64,000 nt of DNA from Ignavibacteriota bacterium. Lineage in GTDB: Bacteria; Bacteroidota; Ignavibacteria; UBA10030. This document shows, in pieces, positions 55,020-64,000 of the stretch. Numbering within the stretch: position 1 is the first letter of the stretch; each line of letters begins with the position of its first letter. Where the stretch lies: positions 2,976,001 to 3,040,000 of the forward strand of contig OY969585.1 in NCBI GenBank assembly GCA_963701295.1, written 5' to 3'. The notes under the pieces were generated by a model. It was not told where the DNA came from. It searched no databases and worked only from the letters and a program-made list of their open reading frames with translations. The position numbers and the translations under genes were made by a program.

Positions 55020-56015
55020 CTATTTCAATACTTCTTTCAACAGCCACGTATTCCAATTGACTGACCATTCATTTACATTTTTTTCTGTGATCGATGTTAG
55101 TGGACTATAGAGAAGGGGTTCATTTGGCGCTTTACTTTTGATTATTTTATCAAGTAATATTGCAACCGATTTATAACCCATCTGGAAACAGTTTATTCCA
55201 ACAAGGCCTTGTACGTAACCACTCTTCACATATTCCAATTCGACCGGCACTGCGTTCCCGGCGACTACTTTCACTTCGCCTGCTTTCCATTTTAAGCTAT
55301 TCTTCACCTGAAGCGCTGAACTGGTAATAAGTATCCACCCTGCAATATTGGGATTAGTTTTCTGTGCTCGATTTAAAGTTTCTGACGCTATTTCAGGAAT
55401 ATTTAAATTATGATAAATATTATCCTGAGGGAGAATGATATGGGGATGTTTTTTTAATTCTTCTTTAATTCCTTGAAGTCGACTCTGCAAATTCAAAGTA
55501 TTTTTAGGCCCAGCAAGAATGGCTATTATTCCCTTCTCATTGATTGCGTTTGCAAGTTCCTGCATTAGCATTCGGCCAAATTTAATGTCATCCGCTCCAT
55601 AGTAAGCAAATCGTTTACTCTTTGGCGCATCAGAATCGAAACATATGATTGGTACTCCTCTATCAATCGCCTTATCGATAACAGGTGTCAGAAAATTTGC
55701 ATCAGAGCAGGATATTGCAATGCCGTCAATTTTTAGACGGGAAAAACGCTCAATTGCATCTGTTTGTTCCTCTACATTTTCCACAGAAGGTGTCTGCCAA
55801 TCAATAACAATATCGACTTTATATTTTTGACCCAGCTCCCTTGCGGCTAATTTCGCCCCCGAATATGCCGCGATGAACACGGGATTTGTACCTATTTTCC
55901 CGATAAGACCAATTGTTATTTTCTTCTGGCTGGAATTATTCTTACCTGATTGCGCAAAAATTATTCCGAAGATCACAAACACCAAACAGAAGAGAAAAAT
56001 GAATCTGTGTTTCAT
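55020..56015 (-). CDS. Periplasmic sugar-binding protein (RbsB/type I PBP fold)
   Basis: Signal peptide, NPVF, GIAIS, FDSDAP.SKR, YG.D...G; paralog of the next gene. Confidence 0.88.
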   Translation of the reverse strand: MKHRFIFLFCLVFVIFGIIFAQSGKNNSSQKKITIGLIGKIGTNPVFIAAYSGAKLAARELGQKYKVDIVIDWQTPSVENVEEQTDAIERFSRLKIDGIAISCSDANFLTPVIDKAIDRGVPIICFDSDAPKSKRFAYYGADDIKFGRMLMQELANAINEKGIIAILAGPKNTLNLQSRLQGIKEELKKHPHIILPQDNIYHNLNIPEIASETLNRAQKTNPNIAGWILITSSALQVKNSLKWKAGEVKVVAGNAVPVELEYVKSGYVQGLVGINCFQMGYKSVAILLDKIIKSKAPNEPLLYSPLTSITEKNVNEWSVNWNTWLLKEVLK

Positions 56016-56194
56016 ACTCTTCATATCCCTTCGTAGGTATCTCACATTTTGTATCTCTTAGAACAAACTCAACTACGCATTGTGAAAATGGTTACATCGT
56101 CAACGTTATATAGCATCCTGCTTGTTCTTTCGAAATGAAGATACTATCTAGTATCAAAAATGATATCTCCATCAATCATTAAAACTTTATAATT

Positions 56195-57193
56195 TTATTG
56201 ATTTACCGCTTCTTTGAGTAGCCACTTCTTCCAATTAAGCGACCATTCCTCCAGATTTTTTTCTGTGACACGAGTCGGTGGATCGACAATTAATTCTTCA
56301 GTCGGTGTCTGATTCTTCAGTATCTTATTTAGCAAAATTTCGACTGATTTATATCCCCACAAAAAACAGCCTTGCGCGATAAGAACTTGTACATGGCCAC
56401 TTTTTAAATACTCCAATTCACTAGGGAGTGCGTCGCAGGCAACGATCTTAACTTCTCCTGGTTCCCATTTTATTGCATTTTTTATCCAGAGCGGCCAGCC
56501 ACCGACAAATACCCAGCCTCCAATTTGAGGATTTGCTTTTTGTGCTCGAGCTACTACTTCAGATGCCCTCTCTGGAAGTTCATCATGATAAAAGACTCCA
56601 TTTGGCAAAAGTTTCATAGATGGATATTTGTTGAGTTCCTCAATGACCGCATGAATACGGCGTTGTAGATTCGGTGCATTCTTATTACCACCAATAATTG
56701 CCACGACTCCTTTTTCATTCATTACTTGAGCAAGCTCTTTCATGAGTATACGCCCAAATTCAGCATTGTCTGAACCATAATAGGCAAATCGTTTGCTCTT
56801 CGGTGCGTCGGCATCAAAACAAACAATCTGAGTGCCAAAATCCACAGCTTTATTAATGGATGGAGTAAGAATATTTGCATCACTGCAAGCGACAGCAATT
56901 CCGGCTACACCCGAACGGCTGAGTTGGTCAACTGACTGAGCTTGTTCCCGAGGATTCTCAGTTTTTGGAGTTTTCCATTCAATGATGACCTCAACACCGT
57001 ACTTGGCACCAATTTCTTTTGCAGCCACACGCGCCCCTGCATACGCGGCTATGAACACCGGGTTCGATTGACTTTTTCCAATGATACCTATAGTGATTTT
57101 TTTCGCATCTCCTTTTTTGTTAACATCTTGGGCAAAAATCTGTCCGTAATTTATAAGAAGTAAACAGATAAGAAAAACGAGTCTGTGTCTCAT
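56195..57193 (-). CDS. Periplasmic sugar-binding protein (RbsB/type I PBP fold)
   Basis: Signal peptide, KSQSNPVF, FDADAPKSKR, GGWPL, DALP.EL. Confidence 0.9.
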   Translation of the reverse strand: MRHRLVFLICLLLINYGQIFAQDVNKKGDAKKITIGIIGKSQSNPVFIAAYAGARVAAKEIGAKYGVEVIIEWKTPKTENPREQAQSVDQLSRSGVAGIAVACSDANILTPSINKAVDFGTQIVCFDADAPKSKRFAYYGSDNAEFGRILMKELAQVMNEKGVVAIIGGNKNAPNLQRRIHAVIEELNKYPSMKLLPNGVFYHDELPERASEVVARAQKANPQIGGWVFVGGWPLWIKNAIKWEPGEVKIVACDALPSELEYLKSGHVQVLIAQGCFLWGYKSVEILLNKILKNQTPTEELIVDPPTRVTEKNLEEWSLNWKKWLLKEAVNQ

Positions 57194-57286
57194 AGTATTC
57201 CCATCCTTTCGCCTATTCAAAAATAATTTGTGCTTCATAGACTTTATTCTTTCACGTAACTCCTACTATAGGTCCTACAAGATAAT

Positions 57287-58894
57287 TTATCTAACTGTGT
57301 ACCCTACTTGCCTTTTAGTTTCTACAGAATTTTGAGAATTTTGTGAAAGTGCTCCATATCCACTTTGAGAGTTCAATTTGAACTGATTAACAAGTGTTTG
57401 AAGAGTTTCCGTTAATCGGTTCAAATCTTCTGCAGCGCGGGCAATCTGTTGAGTGCCCGAAGCTGTTTGCTGAGTGACACTAGCTATGGCTTCCATGTTC
57501 TTACTAATCTGTTCGCTGGTGCTCGATTGCTCTTCGTTCGCGACGGCAATCTGAGAGACCATGTGTGTCACTTTCTGTGATATCTCGACAATCTCTTTCA
57601 GCGACGCACCCGCATGATCTGCCAATACAATTCCTTCATCCACTTGCTTCGTCGCATTTGCCATTGTGCGAACTGCACCATGACTATCGGATTGAATTTG
57701 TTGAATCATCCCAGCAATTTGTTTTGTCGCCTTTGTGGTCTGTTCTGCCAGCTTCCTCACTTCATCAGCCACCACTGCAAAACCACGACCTTGCTCGCCC
57801 GCTCTTGCCGCTTCGATAGCAGCATTGAGAGCCAAAAGATTTGTTTGATCTGCAATATGTTCAATCACTCCAATGATCTCGCCGATCTGATCGCTCGATT
57901 TTCCAAGGTTTTGGATTGTTCCAGCCGATTCTCGCACAACATTAGCGATTTGTTTCATTCCGCTCACAGTATCTAAGACGACTTTTCCACCTTGCTCTGC
58001 AGCTCCTTTGGCTTTTTCTGCGGTATGCGCAGCCTCTCCTGCATTCTCAGAGTTCACAGCGATGCTTTTGGCCATTTGCTCAACAGCTCGTGCTATCTCT
58101 TCCGATTGAGTCGTTTGTTCTTGAGAACCTGCAGCCATTTCTTCGGTACTAGAGCTAATTTGTGCGCTTGCGCTCGCAACCGAAGTTGCCGTTTCGGATA
58201 CTTGAATCAATGTGTCACGTATGGAACCCACAAATCGATCAAAGGAATTTTGGAGTTGACCCATCTCATCTTCTCGGGTCGTATTAAATTGTGTGTTCAG
58301 ATCGGCATTATCGATACTCACTTGTATAGCCTGGAGGTCTTTTACCAAAACCTTTGCATATCTAATCACCCATACAATTCCTAATACAAGGATGATTAAA
58401 TTAATAATTGAAGCCAGCGCTACTTGTCTATAAACCGCAGCCATGACCGGCTCTATAGAAATGCCAACAATCGTAGTCCCCAATTTCCTTCCCTTATATT
58501 CAACCGGACGCAACTCCAAGACAATATCTTTTGCATCATCAAATTCTACCTGGCGCAGTAGAGTCGTTACGTCATATTTCAATTGTCGCGGATTATGCTC
58601 AACAATGGTTTGGTTGGATTCATCCATGATCAATATAAAAGCAACAGCAGGATCCTTCTTTGCCCAGTTGAAGGACGTTTGAATGAGATCAAAATTTCCG
58701 TCGTTCAATCCAGCTCCAACCGAAAAAGAAAGCGTTTCCGAAAGTAACCGGGCATTATTGTCAGACGCGTCACGTCCAGCCGACTTTTGATTGATCCAGT
58801 AGTAGATGATTCCGAAGAAAGTAATCACCAATAATGGAAGAAGAAAAATTGCAATCATTCTGGATGTTAATGATTTTTTAATTATGTCCATCAT
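57287..58894 (-). CDS. Methyl-accepting chemotaxis protein
   Basis: 2 TM, periplasmic domain, HAMP (REDEMGQL), [38 protein letters not shown]. Confidence 0.97.
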
Positions 58895-59162
58895 GGCTGT
58901 GCTCCTTTAATATCATAATGATTGTGCCATAAACAGCAGAATCTTTTTCCGCCCAAATAGTTTTTTTCAATAAAAATTATGCCCCGTTACAATTTCGTAC
59001 TTTGCAAATATGCATTTTCGCCCCAACAATAGCTATCAGCAATCCAATGATTTTTCGTCGGACTATTCCTATAGAAAGTCGCACAGAATAGTTCGATCGA
59101 ACAAGTGTCACCTTTATAGAATGAATAATATTTAAACCCTGTCTTATTTAGTAAAGACAGCA

Positions 59163-60464
59163 TTAGTTGTGTTTCATTTGTTTATAGCGTTTCAGCTTTC
59201 CTTTGACTGTATCGATGAGCATATCGCCTGAAAATGGCTTTGTCAGATAATCATCGGCACCGAGCCCTTTCCCATATCGTACCATACCCTCATCTGTCAT
59301 CCCACTCAGAAAAATGAATGGCACTAGACTTAGATGATGTAACTGTCTGACTTTCTCATAGAACGAGAAACCTCCTATTGTTGAGGTTTCAAGATTTATA
59401 TCAGAAATTATCAAGGAGGGCATGTCATTCTTAAGTCCGGTGAGCGCTTCATCGGATGTATTGTAAGCCTGTACGGTAAATCCCCCACCTTCAAGCACCC
59501 GTACGATCATTCCCAGAGTATTTTCATCGTCATCTATAACATAGAGCATAGGTTTATCCTGATGCTCTCCAAACTCCACAAGAACCTTTGATTCTATTCT
59601 CGAATGTGCTTCCGGCGAAATTTGGTACTTATTGCGAAGTTCATTAATAACTGCTGAGCGTTCCTTTGCATTCATGCCGGAAGTCCAGACCAGTGTAAAT
59701 GCATGTGAATAGGATTCTTCCTTAGCCTCTAACTCGAGCTTTGTATGCTCTTCCGTTGTAATGCGAAGGGTTGTTCGCAAATCTCGAAGTTGACTCTGTT
59801 CTTCCGGAGAGACTGCACCATCTGCCCACGCCAGCAACAACACTCGTTTATACATATCATGAGCTTGATCGATTGTTTTTTGTGTCTGCAAAACATCAGG
59901 AGCAATTTCCACTACCCTTCGCAGTACTTGTGCCGTTGCATTTTGCTGCATTGGCGTCTGTGTAGGTTTTTGTGTATGCACAGTCTCGATCATCTGCTGC
60001 GTTTCCATATGGACAGAATACGCTTTGTCAGAACTCTTTGGAGAAGTAACAGGTTCTTGCATTTGACGCGCCGCAGCATCACTCAGCAATTCATTATGTC
60101 GTTTTTCGGCTTCAAGTTTTTTTTGTTGCCATTCCTCACGTTGCGTCTGCTGATCAGTTTCTTTCTTTAACCGTTCCAATTCTGCACGCCGGCGATCCTC
60201 CTCAATTCTTGCTCGTGCAGTATTCTCCATAGCTCCGCGATTCGATACTGCAACATCCTTCTTCGCTGCTTCTTCTTTCAAGAAAGCGATCCGCTCTTGG
60301 AATGCATAGATGTATGCATTTGTTGGATCTATAATTCGTGCTTTGTCGAGATGTCCCTTCGCTTCTTCTAGAAGTCCGGCTTTAATACACTGATCAACCA
60401 CTTTTAGAATGAAGTTTGCTTCCGTTCGGACTTCTTCGTGATTATGTTGACTTGAGGGTGTCAC
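59163..60464 (-). CDS. Multidomain response regulator: helical/coiled-coil region, TerB-like repeats, C-terminal REC
   Basis: AWADG.VS.EE..L..LR motif; REC: VIDDD, ISDINL, FLSG, GADDYLTKPF. Confidence 0.85.
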   Translation of the reverse strand: MTPSSQHNHEEVRTEANFILKVVDQCIKAGLLEEAKGHLDKARIIDPTNAYIYAFQERIAFLKEEAAKKDVAVSNRGAMENTARARIEEDRRRAELERLKKETDQQTQREEWQQKKLEAEKRHNELLSDAAARQMQEPVTSPKSSDKAYSVHMETQQMIETVHTQKPTQTPMQQNATAQVLRRVVEIAPDVLQTQKTIDQAHDMYKRVLLLAWADGAVSPEEQSQLRDLRTTLRITTEEHTKLELEAKEESYSHAFTLVWTSGMNAKERSAVINELRNKYQISPEAHSRIESKVLVEFGEHQDKPMLYVIDDDENTLGMIVRVLEGGGFTVQAYNTSDEALTGLKNDMPSLIISDINLETSTIGGFSFYEKVRQLHHLSLVPFIFLSGMTDEGMVRYGKGLGADDYLTKPFSGDMLIDTVKGKLKRYKQMKHN

Positions 60465-60557
60465 TTGTTTTTTCGTTTCAAAATATATATTTCTGCTCTA
60501 CCATAACATCAAATTAATTTTTACTGTATCATTTCTTGGCATGTTCCATCTATAATG

Positions 60558-62153
60558 TTAGCACCGTTCTTGATACCACCATCGTCTGACAATATCGCTC
60601 ACGCTCGTTGATGTATTACTTATTTTCCATTTATCAAAAAACTTTATATCCGCACTTGCAGGTTCCGGATTGGGAGGATCCATCTGTACTCGCAACGGCA
60701 TGGGAACTGCATCACCGACTATCAATGCCTCTCCTTGACGAAGCGAAGGAAGAAGGTTCTCTAGACCGGGAAAGGTGTCTGCAACAAGCCGACGCACATA
60801 ATTCTGATCAACCGGATTTGTAAGACGCATTACTACAAAATTGTTGCATTGAGACAGAATTGTCTCAGAAATATCAGATGGCCTCTGACTAACGATCATA
60901 CAGCTTACGCCATATTTTCTTCCTTCTTTCGCAATACGTTCGACAGTGCGTCTTGCAGATTGCGTGCCCCCGGCATTTGAAGATAGATAATTATGCGCTT
61001 CTTCAAAAACCAGGAGAATCGGACATTCGCGCCGATTAATATTCCAAAAATTAAAATCAAATGCGAGTCTTGCCATAAGGGAAACAACGGTGTTGACGAT
61101 ATCGAAAGGAACACCACTCATATCCATGATCGTTACTTTTGATTCACCATTCGACCCAAACATTTTTGTTAGTAATTCTGAGAACGATTCAGAGTGGATG
61201 TATAGTCTTGGCCGGAACATGAAGTCATATCGCGGATCGTTCAGTTTTGTATCAAGCTGTACAAGGAACCGGGCAAACTTGCCATGAAAGGGCCCGCCCT
61301 TCTCTGTCTCAAGAGCTTCTAACTTCGAACGCACCTTCGCAAAATCATAGTACACAGGCGTATCAATGGTGAGAACATTTTTTAATTCCGGATTTTGAAG
61401 GCGTTTTGCCTGGAATACCAGCTCTTTCAAAATAGTGATATGGGTCGCCGCGTTTTCATCTGCAAGATCAACAAACACCTCAGTCATTTCCTGAAACGTC
61501 ATCAACCAAAATGGCAACTCGAGTTCAGTCAAATTCAGATACTGACTGTTTTTCGGGAATGCACTTCTATATTCGTTATGTATATCCAAAATAACAACTT
61601 TCGTCGCAGGATTGCCGATAACCTTCTGCAGGATGGAAGCGACACTACACGACTTCCCAGAACCGCTTGCTCCAATGATTGCGATGTGTTTCCCAAAGAA
61701 ACGATTTGGATCAAGATAAGCACGTTCGTTTTCAAAGTGTGTCAGTGTACCGGTTGAAAATCCAAACTTTTGGAACACCGAAAAAGCAATAGCAAGGTCC
61801 TTTTCTTCCAGCAGATACACAGGTGCTTCTGCCGTCGGAAAAGCAGAAACTCCTCGCTCGAAGATACCGTTTTTCACCGAACCGACGAGGGAGATGATCA
61901 TCTCATAGTGAGCAGTGGTTTTCCCATTTTCACCATATTCCATTTTCCTGAATTCTGATACCATTCCCAATAGCACCTGTCTGCCAACAGGCACAAGTAC
62001 ATACGAACCAATCTGTCCAATAGGATATGTTTTTCCATTTAGTTGCAATGAGAGGCTTGATAGATGGGGATCAAGAGCAACGGTTGCATTTGAGGTCGTA
62101 ACCTTGCGAATAACACCGATCCGTTTTTGATCCCATATTGTTTTTACAGCCAT
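60558..62153 (-). CDS. HerA-like (DUF87) ATPase with an N-terminal HAS barrel
   Basis: GQIGSYV barrel, KHIAIIGASGSGKS (Walker A), FEEAHNY (Walker B), KEGRKYG, SQRP, LTNP.DQ. Confidence 0.92.
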   Translation of the reverse strand: MAVKTIWDQKRIGVIRKVTTSNATVALDPHLSSLSLQLNGKTYPIGQIGSYVLVPVGRQVLLGMVSEFRKMEYGENGKTTAHYEMIISLVGSVKNGIFERGVSAFPTAEAPVYLLEEKDLAIAFSVFQKFGFSTGTLTHFENERAYLDPNRFFGKHIAIIGASGSGKSCSVASILQKVIGNPATKVVILDIHNEYRSAFPKNSQYLNLTELELPFWLMTFQEMTEVFVDLADENAATHITILKELVFQAKRLQNPELKNVLTIDTPVYYDFAKVRSKLEALETEKGGPFHGKFARFLVQLDTKLNDPRYDFMFRPRLYIHSESFSELLTKMFGSNGESKVTIMDMSGVPFDIVNTVVSLMARLAFDFNFWNINRRECPILLVFEEAHNYLSSNAGGTQSARRTVERIAKEGRKYGVSCMIVSQRPSDISETILSQCNNFVVMRLTNPVDQNYVRRLVADTFPGLENLLPSLRQGEALIVGDAVPMPLRVQMDPPNPEPASADIKFFDKWKISNTSTSVSDIVRRWWYQERC

Positions 62154-62201
62154 AGTAACACCTTATTTAACCGAAAATCTGACAGTATTCAACTAATTTT
62201 T

Positions 62202-64000
62202 TTAATCGTATACTGCTGCAATTTTGGATGCACCATAAATTTCATTGTTCACCAACATCACCATATCCTCCGAATCAAACGGCTTCTGAAGAAATGGTAA
62301 TTCTTGTACGAGAGTACTCATATCACTCGGCAGATTTTCTATTAAGCTCCCGCTCATGCCTATGATTTTAATGTTTGGATTTATTCTCCTGAGGGCAGGA
62401 ATTGTTGTAAGTCCATTCATATTAGGCATCAACATATCAAGCAGCACAACATCGATCTTATTTCTATTTTTTTCATAGATCGAAATCGCTTCATGTCCGT
62501 CAAACGCAGTCATTACTTTGAATTTTCTGCTTTCGAGCGTAGCCCGTACAAGATCCTGCAAGCTTTTTTCATCATCGACAACAAGAACAGTTTCTCCATG
62601 TCCCATCGATAGGTTGCTGCCTCTCGCAACATGTTCCTTTACTTTTTCTTCTTTGGCGGGGAGGAATACCTTAAACTCTGTTCCTTTGCCGAGTTCGCTA
62701 TGGACATCTATGAAACCACCGTGGCTCTTTACAATGCTTAATACTGAAGAAAGGCCTAAACCAGTTCCTTTGCCCGGTTCCTTTGTAGTAAAAAATGGAT
62801 CGAATATTTGATTTATAATCTCTGGAGCGATTCCAGTACCTGCATCTTTTACACTAAGGACAACATAGGGTCCCGGTACCGCTCTAAAATGCAAACCTGC
62901 TTCCTGTTCATTGAGGACAACATTTTGCAAATCGATGGCAAGCGTTCCACCATTTGGCATAGCATCTCGGGCATTGATCGAAAGATTCATTAATACCTGA
63001 TATAACTGCGTTGCATCTCCCTCAACATTCCAGATTCCTTTCGGACAATGCCTTCTTACTTTTACCATAGGCGGGAATGTTTCTGAAACGAAATTGAGCA
63101 ATTCCCATAAGAGATGCTTAAGTTGAAGAGTCACATGTTCACCTTGCACTCCTCGCACAAACGACATCAGTTGTCTTACAACCCCTTCTCCACGCTTTGC
63201 CGAACTTTCCAATGTTCGTAAAATATCTTGGCTCGTTTCATCTGTGAGCTTCTCCTTCATAAAGGGAACAGCCAGAATAATGGGTGTAAGAATATTGTTA
63301 AGGTCATGCAAAAGTCCGCTTGCCAAAGTGCCCACACTTTCCAACCGTTGAGCACGAAGGAACTGCTGTTCTATAATTTTCTTATCGGTGATGTCTGTAT
63401 TAATAGTTAGGATTGATTTCGGCCGCCCATATTCATCCCGCACAAGACTCCATCGGCTTTCCATAACAATGGTTTTGTGCGTCTTTGTGACTTGCTTCAA
63501 TTCACCAAACCAAGAGCCCTTATCTTTCACATCGAGCAATGCATGTTTTATACTGTCCGCTTCCGTATGGAGTAGTTGGGATGCATTTTTTGCTAGAGCT
63601 TCATCCCGCTTCCACCCATAAATTCTCTCTGCACTATTGTTCCAATAGATTATATTATCATCCAGGTCTCGAACAACAATCGCATCCTGTGCAATATCCA
63701 GCAAATTTGCTTGTTCTCTAATTTTTTCTTCCGCTCGTTTACGCTCAGTAGCATCTTGCATATAAATCGCAAGGCCATCTTCCGCAGGATATGCCCTAAC
63801 TTGCAGCCATGAATTTAACGCTGAATAGTATTCTTCAAATTCCGCAAACTTGTGGTCTGTCATTGCACTATGTAATGCTTTATATGCTACGGAGTCCTTT
63901 GGTGCTGGGAATTCACTCCACCAATTTTTCCCCCAGAGGTCTTCGCGCCGCTTGTTTACTTTTGCCAAGAAGACATCCGATCTCGGATTCAAGTACTTAA
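62202..64000 (-). CDS. PAS-PAS hybrid sensor histidine kinase with REC (5'-truncated by the window edge)
   Basis: PAS/PAC domains, HDLNN (H box), NARDAM, DAGTG, FFTTK..GKGTGLGL, REC with DMLMP; frame stays open to the window end. Confidence 0.95.
   Translation of the reverse strand, partial: KYLNPRSDVFLAKVNKRREDLWGKNWWSEFPAPKDSVAYKALHSAMTDHKFAEFEEYYSALNSWLQVRAYPAEDGLAIYMQDATERKRAEEKIREQANLLDIAQDAIVVRDLDDNIIYWNNSAERIYGWKRDEALAKNASQLLHTEADSIKHALLDVKDKGSWFGELKQVTKTHKTIVMESRWSLVRDEYGRPKSILTINTDITDKKIIEQQFLRAQRLESVGTLASGLLHDLNNILTPIILAVPFMKEKLTDETSQDILRTLESSAKRGEGVVRQLMSFVRGVQGEHVTLQLKHLLWELLNFVSETFPPMVKVRRHCPKGIWNVEGDATQLYQVLMNLSINARDAMPNGGTLAIDLQNVVLNEQEAGLHFRAVPGPYVVLSVKDAGTGIAPEIINQIFDPFFTTKEPGKGTGLGLSSVLSIVKSHGGFIDVHSELGKGTEFKVFLPAKEEKVKEHVARGSNLSMGHGETVLVVDDEKSLQDLVRATLESRKFKVMTAFDGHEAISIYEKNRNKIDVVLLDMLMPNMNGLTTIPALRRINPNIKIIGMSGSLIENLPSDMSTLVQELPFLQKPFDSEDMVMLVNNEIYGASKIAAVYD

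Follow-up and report, generated by a model that had tools for sequence, protein, structure and literature searches.

The closest described relatives of the ATPase considered here are partners of nucleases or NADases. The DUF4297-HerA system (PDB 9c1m, 8ziq, 8xau) has a HerA that switches on DUF4297 through its HAS domain (bioRxiv 10.1101/2024.10.24.620088) and that grips DNA with residues R284 and K287 of an insertion subdomain (PMC11291478). For SIR2-HerA (S. aureus, PDB 8wiv/8wld; Nezha, 8j4u) PMC11514289 has HerA activating SIR2 allosterically, likewise through HAS, and in end resection HerA pairs with NurA (PDB 4d2i, 9x1m, 8yhx). Passages of PMC12839542 and PMC9503650 place HerA in defence contexts only, and full-text literature searches returned no description of HerA with signalling genes, although the main HerA gene-neighbourhood survey may mention such contexts. 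Here we describe a HerA-family ATPase, paralog P1, encoded in a 64,000-nucleotide stretch (the window) of an Ignavibacteriota bacterium genome (contig OY969585.1, positions 2,976,001 to 3,040,000), a single-contig assembly that is 99.3% complete. Its neighbours are signalling genes, and defence-type HerA embedded in signalling operons is a real and conserved variant that is apparently undescribed.

An earlier note on this DNA listed, all co-oriented, a hybrid kinase, a HerA ATPase, a receiver protein, a methyl-accepting chemotaxis protein (MCP), and binding proteins, and the gene order, the gaps (48 bp between kinase and HerA, 93 bp between HerA and the receiver gene), and the shared orientation are all as stated there, with the whole array on the minus strand (Table 1). 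The hybrid kinase (~765 aa, starting ~500 bases past the window end) has the architecture REC-PAS-PAS-HisKA-HATPase-REC and the phospho-acceptor His398 is present, whereas in DUF4297-HerA the gene directly upstream encodes the nuclease. The same kinase upstream and the same ENT-receiver gene downstream accompany P1 in all 26 genomes that have it (14 duplicate loci removed, one genome counted from two contig ends), so that the order on whose conservation the earlier note had staked its proposal is retained throughout, but P1 is one evolutionary event and these are not 26 independent tests. The MCP also keeps its downstream place at most P1 loci. Three or four of the 26 loci have frameshifts or assembly gaps, and HerA itself is split in three assemblies (L048, L088, and L101, the neighbours being split too in L088), probably by sequencing frameshifts.

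Such a setting is rare in the genome background computed with home-made signalling profiles, in which 112 of 2839 non-signalling genes (3.9%) have one co-oriented signalling neighbour and 3 of 2839 (0.1%) are flanked on both sides; the P1 placement is thus above chance. Metagenome loci of the wider family served as a further control. Of 80 loci, 73 lie outside the P1-containing clade and 39 of these have SIR2 or DUF4297 directly upstream. At none of the 73, several of which lack flanks, is there a signalling gene in the same orientation within 500 bp, and one has a kinase 1.07 kb downstream. Among the seven loci inside the clade, four have a signalling neighbour, one has none, and two lack flanks.

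The HerA protein is complete, as the earlier note had held: it matches the DUF87 profile with an expectation value (E) of 2e-35 and has the features of the family in the order HAS barrel, RecA-like core with Walker A and B motifs, helical bundle, and C-terminal hook, with an intact arginine-finger motif at residues 409–415. Its top profile match in PADLOC is HerA PDLC04105 (E 6e-147), but it falls below the curated anti-phage cut-offs, scoring 407 against 850 bits for NF042944 and 178 against 800 bits for NF042943. The nearest solved structure by sequence is 9c1m (E 6e-100), and an AlphaFold monomer model made with 100 sequences (predicted local distance difference test, pLDDT, of 88) has template modelling (TM) scores of 0.81 to 9c1m at 33% identity, 0.80–0.82 to SIR2-HerA 8wld, and 0.65–0.67 to HerA-NurA structures, which share the superfamily fold but are much more distant (E ~1e-30, 19–24% identity). 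It is thus of the same type as SIR2-HerA, although its neighbours are signalling proteins rather than an NADase. With DUF4297-HerA it shares the domain order, Walker motifs, arginine finger, hook, and a co-oriented gene directly upstream, but differs in lacking a detectable nuclease and in a much reduced insertion. With the 8xau chain numbering matched to PMC11291478 via K157, the 44-residue insertion at 277–320 that includes R284 and K287 corresponds to ~7 residues in the window HerA, and in all eight P1 sequences aligned the insertion is 8–11 residues shorter than in paralogs P2 and P3. DNA binding by P1 may therefore be weaker, and with the DNA-gripping insertion gone it is not established that HerA is a DNA motor here. 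HAS is the most divergent domain among the paralogs (44–49% identity versus 70–75% for the ATPase core), which would be compatible with changed partners, yet such divergence is usual for this domain.

No cognate effector was found. Where the earlier note saw no NurA, Sir2, or nuclease adjacent to HerA, the neighbours are indeed the kinase and the receiver protein, and the partner encoded elsewhere in the genome, which the note had named as a finding that would undo its claim, did not turn up either. Profile searches of the genome found no NurA (positive controls matched in 7 of 14 genomes) and no SIR2_2 (positive controls matched in 1 of 14), and eight query proteins encoded upstream of defence HerAs in related genomes have no homolog in it at E≤0.01. 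Six of these queries are SIR2-type and one is DUF4297-type, and PADLOC confirmed SIR2 for five and DUF4297 for one of the six scanned. The DUF4297-type query is from a class relative; the Pfam PF14130 search was uninformative as its controls were unmatched. A defence-profile scan gave no match of note for the HerA neighbours, and a plasmid search gave only distant HerA matches below 60% identity, the best at ~33–35%. True SIR2- or DUF4297-HerA loci of the same class are patchy and ~31–35% identical. Four further HerA proteins (P0152, P0155, P0187, and P0216) are 1,030–1,140 aa long with a long N-terminal part and are likely natural DUF4297-HerA fusions, because the start of P0152 resembles the DUF4297 protein of locus L171.

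Three HerA paralogs, 55–60% identical, are present in the genome, and each has a co-oriented signalling neighbour: the hybrid kinase and receiver protein for P1, a SpoIIE phosphatase for P2, and a REC-kinase for P3. All 24 family relatives carry the clade they form, as do 30 of 200 class genomes (match at E≤1e-98). P1 HerA is the most conserved gene of its cluster (86–98% identity). Its ratio of nonsynonymous to synonymous substitution rates (dN/dS) is 0.024–0.041 versus 0.038–0.22 for five neighbours, the lowest of the six in all four comparisons and a mark of strong purifying selection, and its G+C content equals the genome average. The clade is vertically inherited and Ignavibacteria-type, and with up to three paralogs per genome it differs in this from DUF4297-HerA. 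Because it occurs in all family relatives, has genome-like G+C content, and has low dN/dS, this HerA is not defence-like. Two midpoint-rooted trees, from which near-identical copies and fragments were omitted (FastTree, 199 sequences; IQ-TREE quick search, 81 sequences), both place the clade nested among SIR2- and DUF4297-linked HerAs. P1 and P3 are sisters (support 0.99 and 100, respectively), and a branch of genus g41 falls inside the clade with support of 0.98 in FastTree but a weak 45 in IQ-TREE.

The deep branches and P2 adjoin SpoIIE, which lies upstream in three families but downstream in g41, a genus of another taxonomic order, in all 14 of its genomes, and the ancestral neighbour of the clade was likely this phosphatase rather than the TPR-ENT-receiver protein. 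An adenylate cyclase gene is often upstream of the SpoIIE-HerA pair, and in two loci with SpoIIE elsewhere it is directly downstream of HerA; in a further family the HerA neighbour is a receiver cluster. That the branches differ in their signalling neighbours (SpoIIE, adenylate cyclase, receiver cluster, kinase) is one point in favour of a link to signalling. In the source genome P2 (C1:3489524-3492393, L004) follows SpoIIE within a run of mutS, dinB-family, and DUF3109 genes; mutS is near the SpoIIE-HerA pair in the source genus and in g41, where HerA (L153–L158) is ~506 aa with a shortened HAS and sits between mutS and spoIIE. P3, at the contig start (C1:1-5692, L005), lies behind a HAMP-GAF-kinase-REC-REC gene and a REC-kinase gene, a pair of kinases that precedes P3 in this genus; these two kinases follow an ENT-receiver gene in the HerA-less family f19 (L278, L286). 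In genome G125, P3 is within a cluster of kinase, receiver, and ENT-receiver genes.

Beyond this class, an alphaproteobacterial HerA branch is present in 39 of 81 genomes of one order, and at 19 of 32 loci the gene directly upstream encodes a sensor-less kinase (plus one divergent); a GGDEF-EAL gene lies downstream at six. Because the trees place this branch apart, it suggests a second recruitment. At loci L218–L228, L185–L187, and L117–L123 the kinase is DivJ/PleC-like, or GGDEF-EAL is downstream. Another branch follows a PF09608 (Alph_Pro_TM) membrane-protein gene in seven loci (L342, L343, L346, L347, L351, L361, L371), at which neither SIR2, DUF4297, nor a known effector was detected.

Upstream of the hybrid kinase there is a second kinase and then a full che operon containing cheW, a HEAT protein gene, cheR, two cheY, two cheZ-like genes, cheA, and cheB. 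Searches of the genome for flagellin, FliM/N, and FliF gave no match. In the flagellated relatives G016 and G040 this same operon is followed directly by flgB, flgC, fliE, fliF, fliG, and fliI, and in G030 and G032 by other genes after cheB. P1 genomes have the kinase-HerA-receiver block at the position of these flagellar genes. FliF was not found in 20 of the 21 P1 genomes searched, but G506 still has it and a strict replacement of the flagellum by the P1 block was rejected. Within the family sample, the eight genomes with neither FliF nor P1 lack the CheA ortholog of this operon. The block may thus provide a use for the che system where flagella are missing, although this is a single event. 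The tandem CheZ-like genes and the two cheY lie just past the window (L001:14220-15638), whereas in G016, G032, and G040 the CheZ-like gene is single. At C1:3521841-3522887 (L297) a PilT-like ATPase is encoded that scores slightly below its family cut-off, and the che system could alternatively act on type IV pili.

The protein downstream of HerA contains a TPR-like hairpin (residues 9–72), a coiled coil and variable linker, twin helical repeats (198–303), and a receiver domain (309–420). The receiver (E 4e-16) is canonical, with the phosphorylation residues D311–313, D355, S387, and K409 all present. This bears out the REC part of the TerB-like/REC protein described in the earlier note, but its TerB-like part is weak, as the middle domain alone scores 20.9 bits against a TerB (PF05099) cut-off of 24.4, and 17.6 bits in the genome search. 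The repeats best match ENT, followed by Tic110 and TerB; the isolated 106-aa domain reaches 30.6 bits with ENT (PF03735; cut-off 28.5), a marginal match since the whole protein scores 21.8. Among 16 family members, 14 match ENT and seven TerB at E≤0.1. Comparison with the EMSY ENT structure 1utu (Z 7.8, root-mean-square deviation 2.9, 73 residues aligned) is within the noise range for helical folds, and with a single-sequence structural model (pLDDT 61.6) Foldseek gave no match at E≤0.001 and VIA-align merely helical matches (Z 8–10). Unlike EMSY, Tic110, and TerB, this is a bacterial twin repeat between a TPR/coiled-coil part and a receiver, and no ter operon adjoins it. In other genomes members of the family have coiled coils of up to ~1,100 residues, which we take to recall the receiver-coiled-coil polarity proteins of myxobacteria.

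Of 200 class genomes, 42 encode a member of the family, and these include 29 of the 30 that carry the HerA clade and 13 of the 170 that do not, although the genomes are kin and not independent, and two whole families have ENT-receiver genes without HerA. In three separate branches, namely P1, family f9, and P3 of G125, HerA and an ENT-receiver gene are no more than ~3 kb apart; a direct orthology of the f9 protein with that of the window was rejected by the tree. Seven further members are encoded in the source genome (C1:131776-134380, 302403-303515, 462899-463576, 1230708-1232069, and 1397268-1399834), including two tandem pairs, one without TPR and receiver, and some with Glu at the phospho-acceptor position.

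We tentatively propose that P1 HerA works as a hexameric, ATP-dependent platform, binding signalling proteins of a non-flagellar chemosensory pathway and adjusting their activity, a reading of the sequence that we regard as plausible but short of probable. HerA would form a hexamer as do its solved relatives, and its HAS ring would dock a partner in the way that SIR2 or DUF4297 is docked, the client being the upstream hybrid kinase, the TPR-ENT-receiver protein, or both. Depending on its nucleotide state, the ring would control how phosphate from the MCP-CheA array and from the hybrid kinase reaches the receiver protein, presumably the pathway output. For the SpoIIE phosphatase the ancestral copy would play this part, duplication having given P1 new clients. 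HerA as a regulator of clients has a precedent in the HAS-mediated activation of a partner in both SIR2-HerA and DUF4297-HerA. The partnership of KaiC with SasA is an example from another ATPase. KaiC-like RecA-fold ring ATPases recur as neighbours or fusion partners of receiver, PAS, and kinase modules, and PMC5847659 cites a proposal that they are signalling hubs. They are the nearest functional analogy to the window HerA, but an analogy only, from a different family, and no KaiC match is among the domain-profile matches of the window proteins.

Several observations weigh against this proposal. Chief among them, P3 lies among housekeeping genes (sucD, ndk, gatA, recG) in 7 of 11 genome loci and near signalling genes in only four, from two genera, and no signalling neighbour is seen at loci L162, L174, and L328 either. 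A SpoIIE ortholog is encoded by 136 of 200 class genomes, mostly without HerA and with varied neighbours; strict SpoIIE-HerA co-occurrence was rejected on this ground, and HerA is therefore an optional companion that its partners do not need. The source genome has eight ENT-receiver family members of which one adjoins HerA, and that paralog (85–87% conserved) has no unique conservation, an idea we rejected as a second one reaches 84–87%. One basic residue, K285, persists in the shortened loop, and the SIR2-linked defence HerAs L164 and L169 are also short-looped, such that loop loss was rejected as proof of lost DNA binding. The single origin of P1 and the HerA-less families with ENT-receiver genes count here too, and in G007 HerA, cheA, and the receiver ortholog were lost together as one block.

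A wider scheme extends the platform reading, and we consider it rather doubtful. An anti-phage HerA would have been domesticated at least twice, in an Ignavibacteria-type lineage and in Alphaproteobacteria, into a general signalling module, the hexamer sensing ATP or a nucleic-acid ligand and thereby controlling kinases, phosphatases, and cyclases via HAS; here a loop-less duplicate and an ENT-repeat receiver would be the output stage of a che operon that outlived its flagellum.

The earlier note had proposed the opposite direction of control, a phosphorelay-controlled HerA with the receiver protein as its adaptor, in which the phosphorylated TPR-ENT-receiver protein would dock on the ring and switch on a motor or remodelling activity as the chemosensory output. 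The conserved order, the absent partners, and the canonical receiver stand as this proposal requires; the remaining domains of the receiver protein are solely interaction domains, the block sits where flagellar genes follow cheB elsewhere, and HerA recurs close to ENT-receiver genes in separate branches. The other neighbours of the clade (phosphatase, cyclase, kinase) make signals, however, which suits HerA as the regulator, and no substrate or nuclease is encoded nearby for a ring with a shortened DNA-contact loop. The retention of FliF in G506 and the seven paralogs away from HerA, together with the presence of the family in genomes without the clade, also tell against it, and neither phosphorelay control of HerA, nor a DNA motor, nor a dedicated adaptor role is established. 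We regard this direction as unlikely; HerA regulating signalling proteins would suit known HerA behaviour at least as well.

HerA could instead be a housekeeping ATPase acting on its own, in DNA metabolism for instance, and merely be co-transcribed with its neighbours, these representing a few old insertions. The housekeeping surroundings of P3 in most genera, mutS near the SpoIIE-HerA pair in two genera, and partners that are widespread without HerA would fit, and the PF09608-linked branch shows that lone domestication happens. However, at least five branches that differ in gene order have signalling neighbours, where the background is 4%, and a clade not found in 170 of 200 class genomes is not core machinery, leaving this explanation improbable. 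That HerA still serves against phage, through an effector that escaped recognition or by way of signalling proteins that pass on an infection signal, is very improbable: its best profile and structure matches are anti-phage HerAs and in the trees its clade lies within SIR2- and DUF4297-linked sequences, but it scores less than half of the NF042944 cut-off, no effector homolog was found in the genome, its neighbours give no notable defence match, and it is vertically inherited and slowly evolving, unlike the patchy true defence loci.

Table 1. Features of the HerA locus in the window
Feature	Coordinates	Strand	Basis
Hybrid histidine kinase, 3′ part	62202..64000	-	soluble; domain profiles
HerA-family ATPase, paralog P1, 531 aa	60558..62153	-	DUF87, PADLOC profile, AlphaFold model
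Walker A of HerA, residues 161–168, intact	61650..61673	-	sequence alignment
Remnant of HerA insertion subdomain, residues 278–285	61299..61322	-	alignment to 8xau
Walker B region of HerA, residues 380–388, intact	60990..61016	-	sequence alignment
TPR-ENT-receiver protein, 433 aa	59163..60464	-	profiles, predicted structure
Twin ENT-like three-helix repeat in receiver protein ('TerB-like' part of the earlier note)	59556..59873	-	ENT profile
7-pair hairpin, candidate terminator	59139..59160	.	directly after receiver-gene stop
Membrane methyl-accepting chemotaxis protein (HAMP, MCP signal domain)	57287..58894	-	domain profiles
Periplasmic sugar-binding-type protein	56195..57238	-	domain profile
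Second periplasmic sugar-binding-type protein	55020..56045	-	domain profile

The MCP gene is 268 bp from the receiver gene, and because of this spacing and the intervening hairpin it may be transcribed separately, with the caveat for the hairpin that promoter and terminator scans are at chance level (38 versus 43.5 expected and 12 versus 13.7 expected). In four peat metatranscriptomes (5–9% of words) contigs of relatives span all of the genes and one bridges the HerA-receiver gap, which we do not take as evidence, as contigs do not prove a single transcript. Periplasmic sugar-binding-type proteins flank the che cluster on both sides (window 55020-57238; L001:19112-20000), and are probable ligand inputs to the MCP.

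If the platform reading is true, a branch of HerA with kinases, a phosphatase, a cyclase, and a receiver as neighbours would add a signalling role to an ATPase known as a nuclease or NADase partner, and would be a case of a defence component turned cellular regulator. It also carries a caution, in that defence profiles score such HerAs highly without an effector being found. The TPR-ENT-receiver family, unnamed in the searches made, brings an ENT-like domain, known from eukaryotic EMSY, into bacterial signalling, and the block as a whole is a testable candidate for what a chemosensory system acts on when its host has no flagella.

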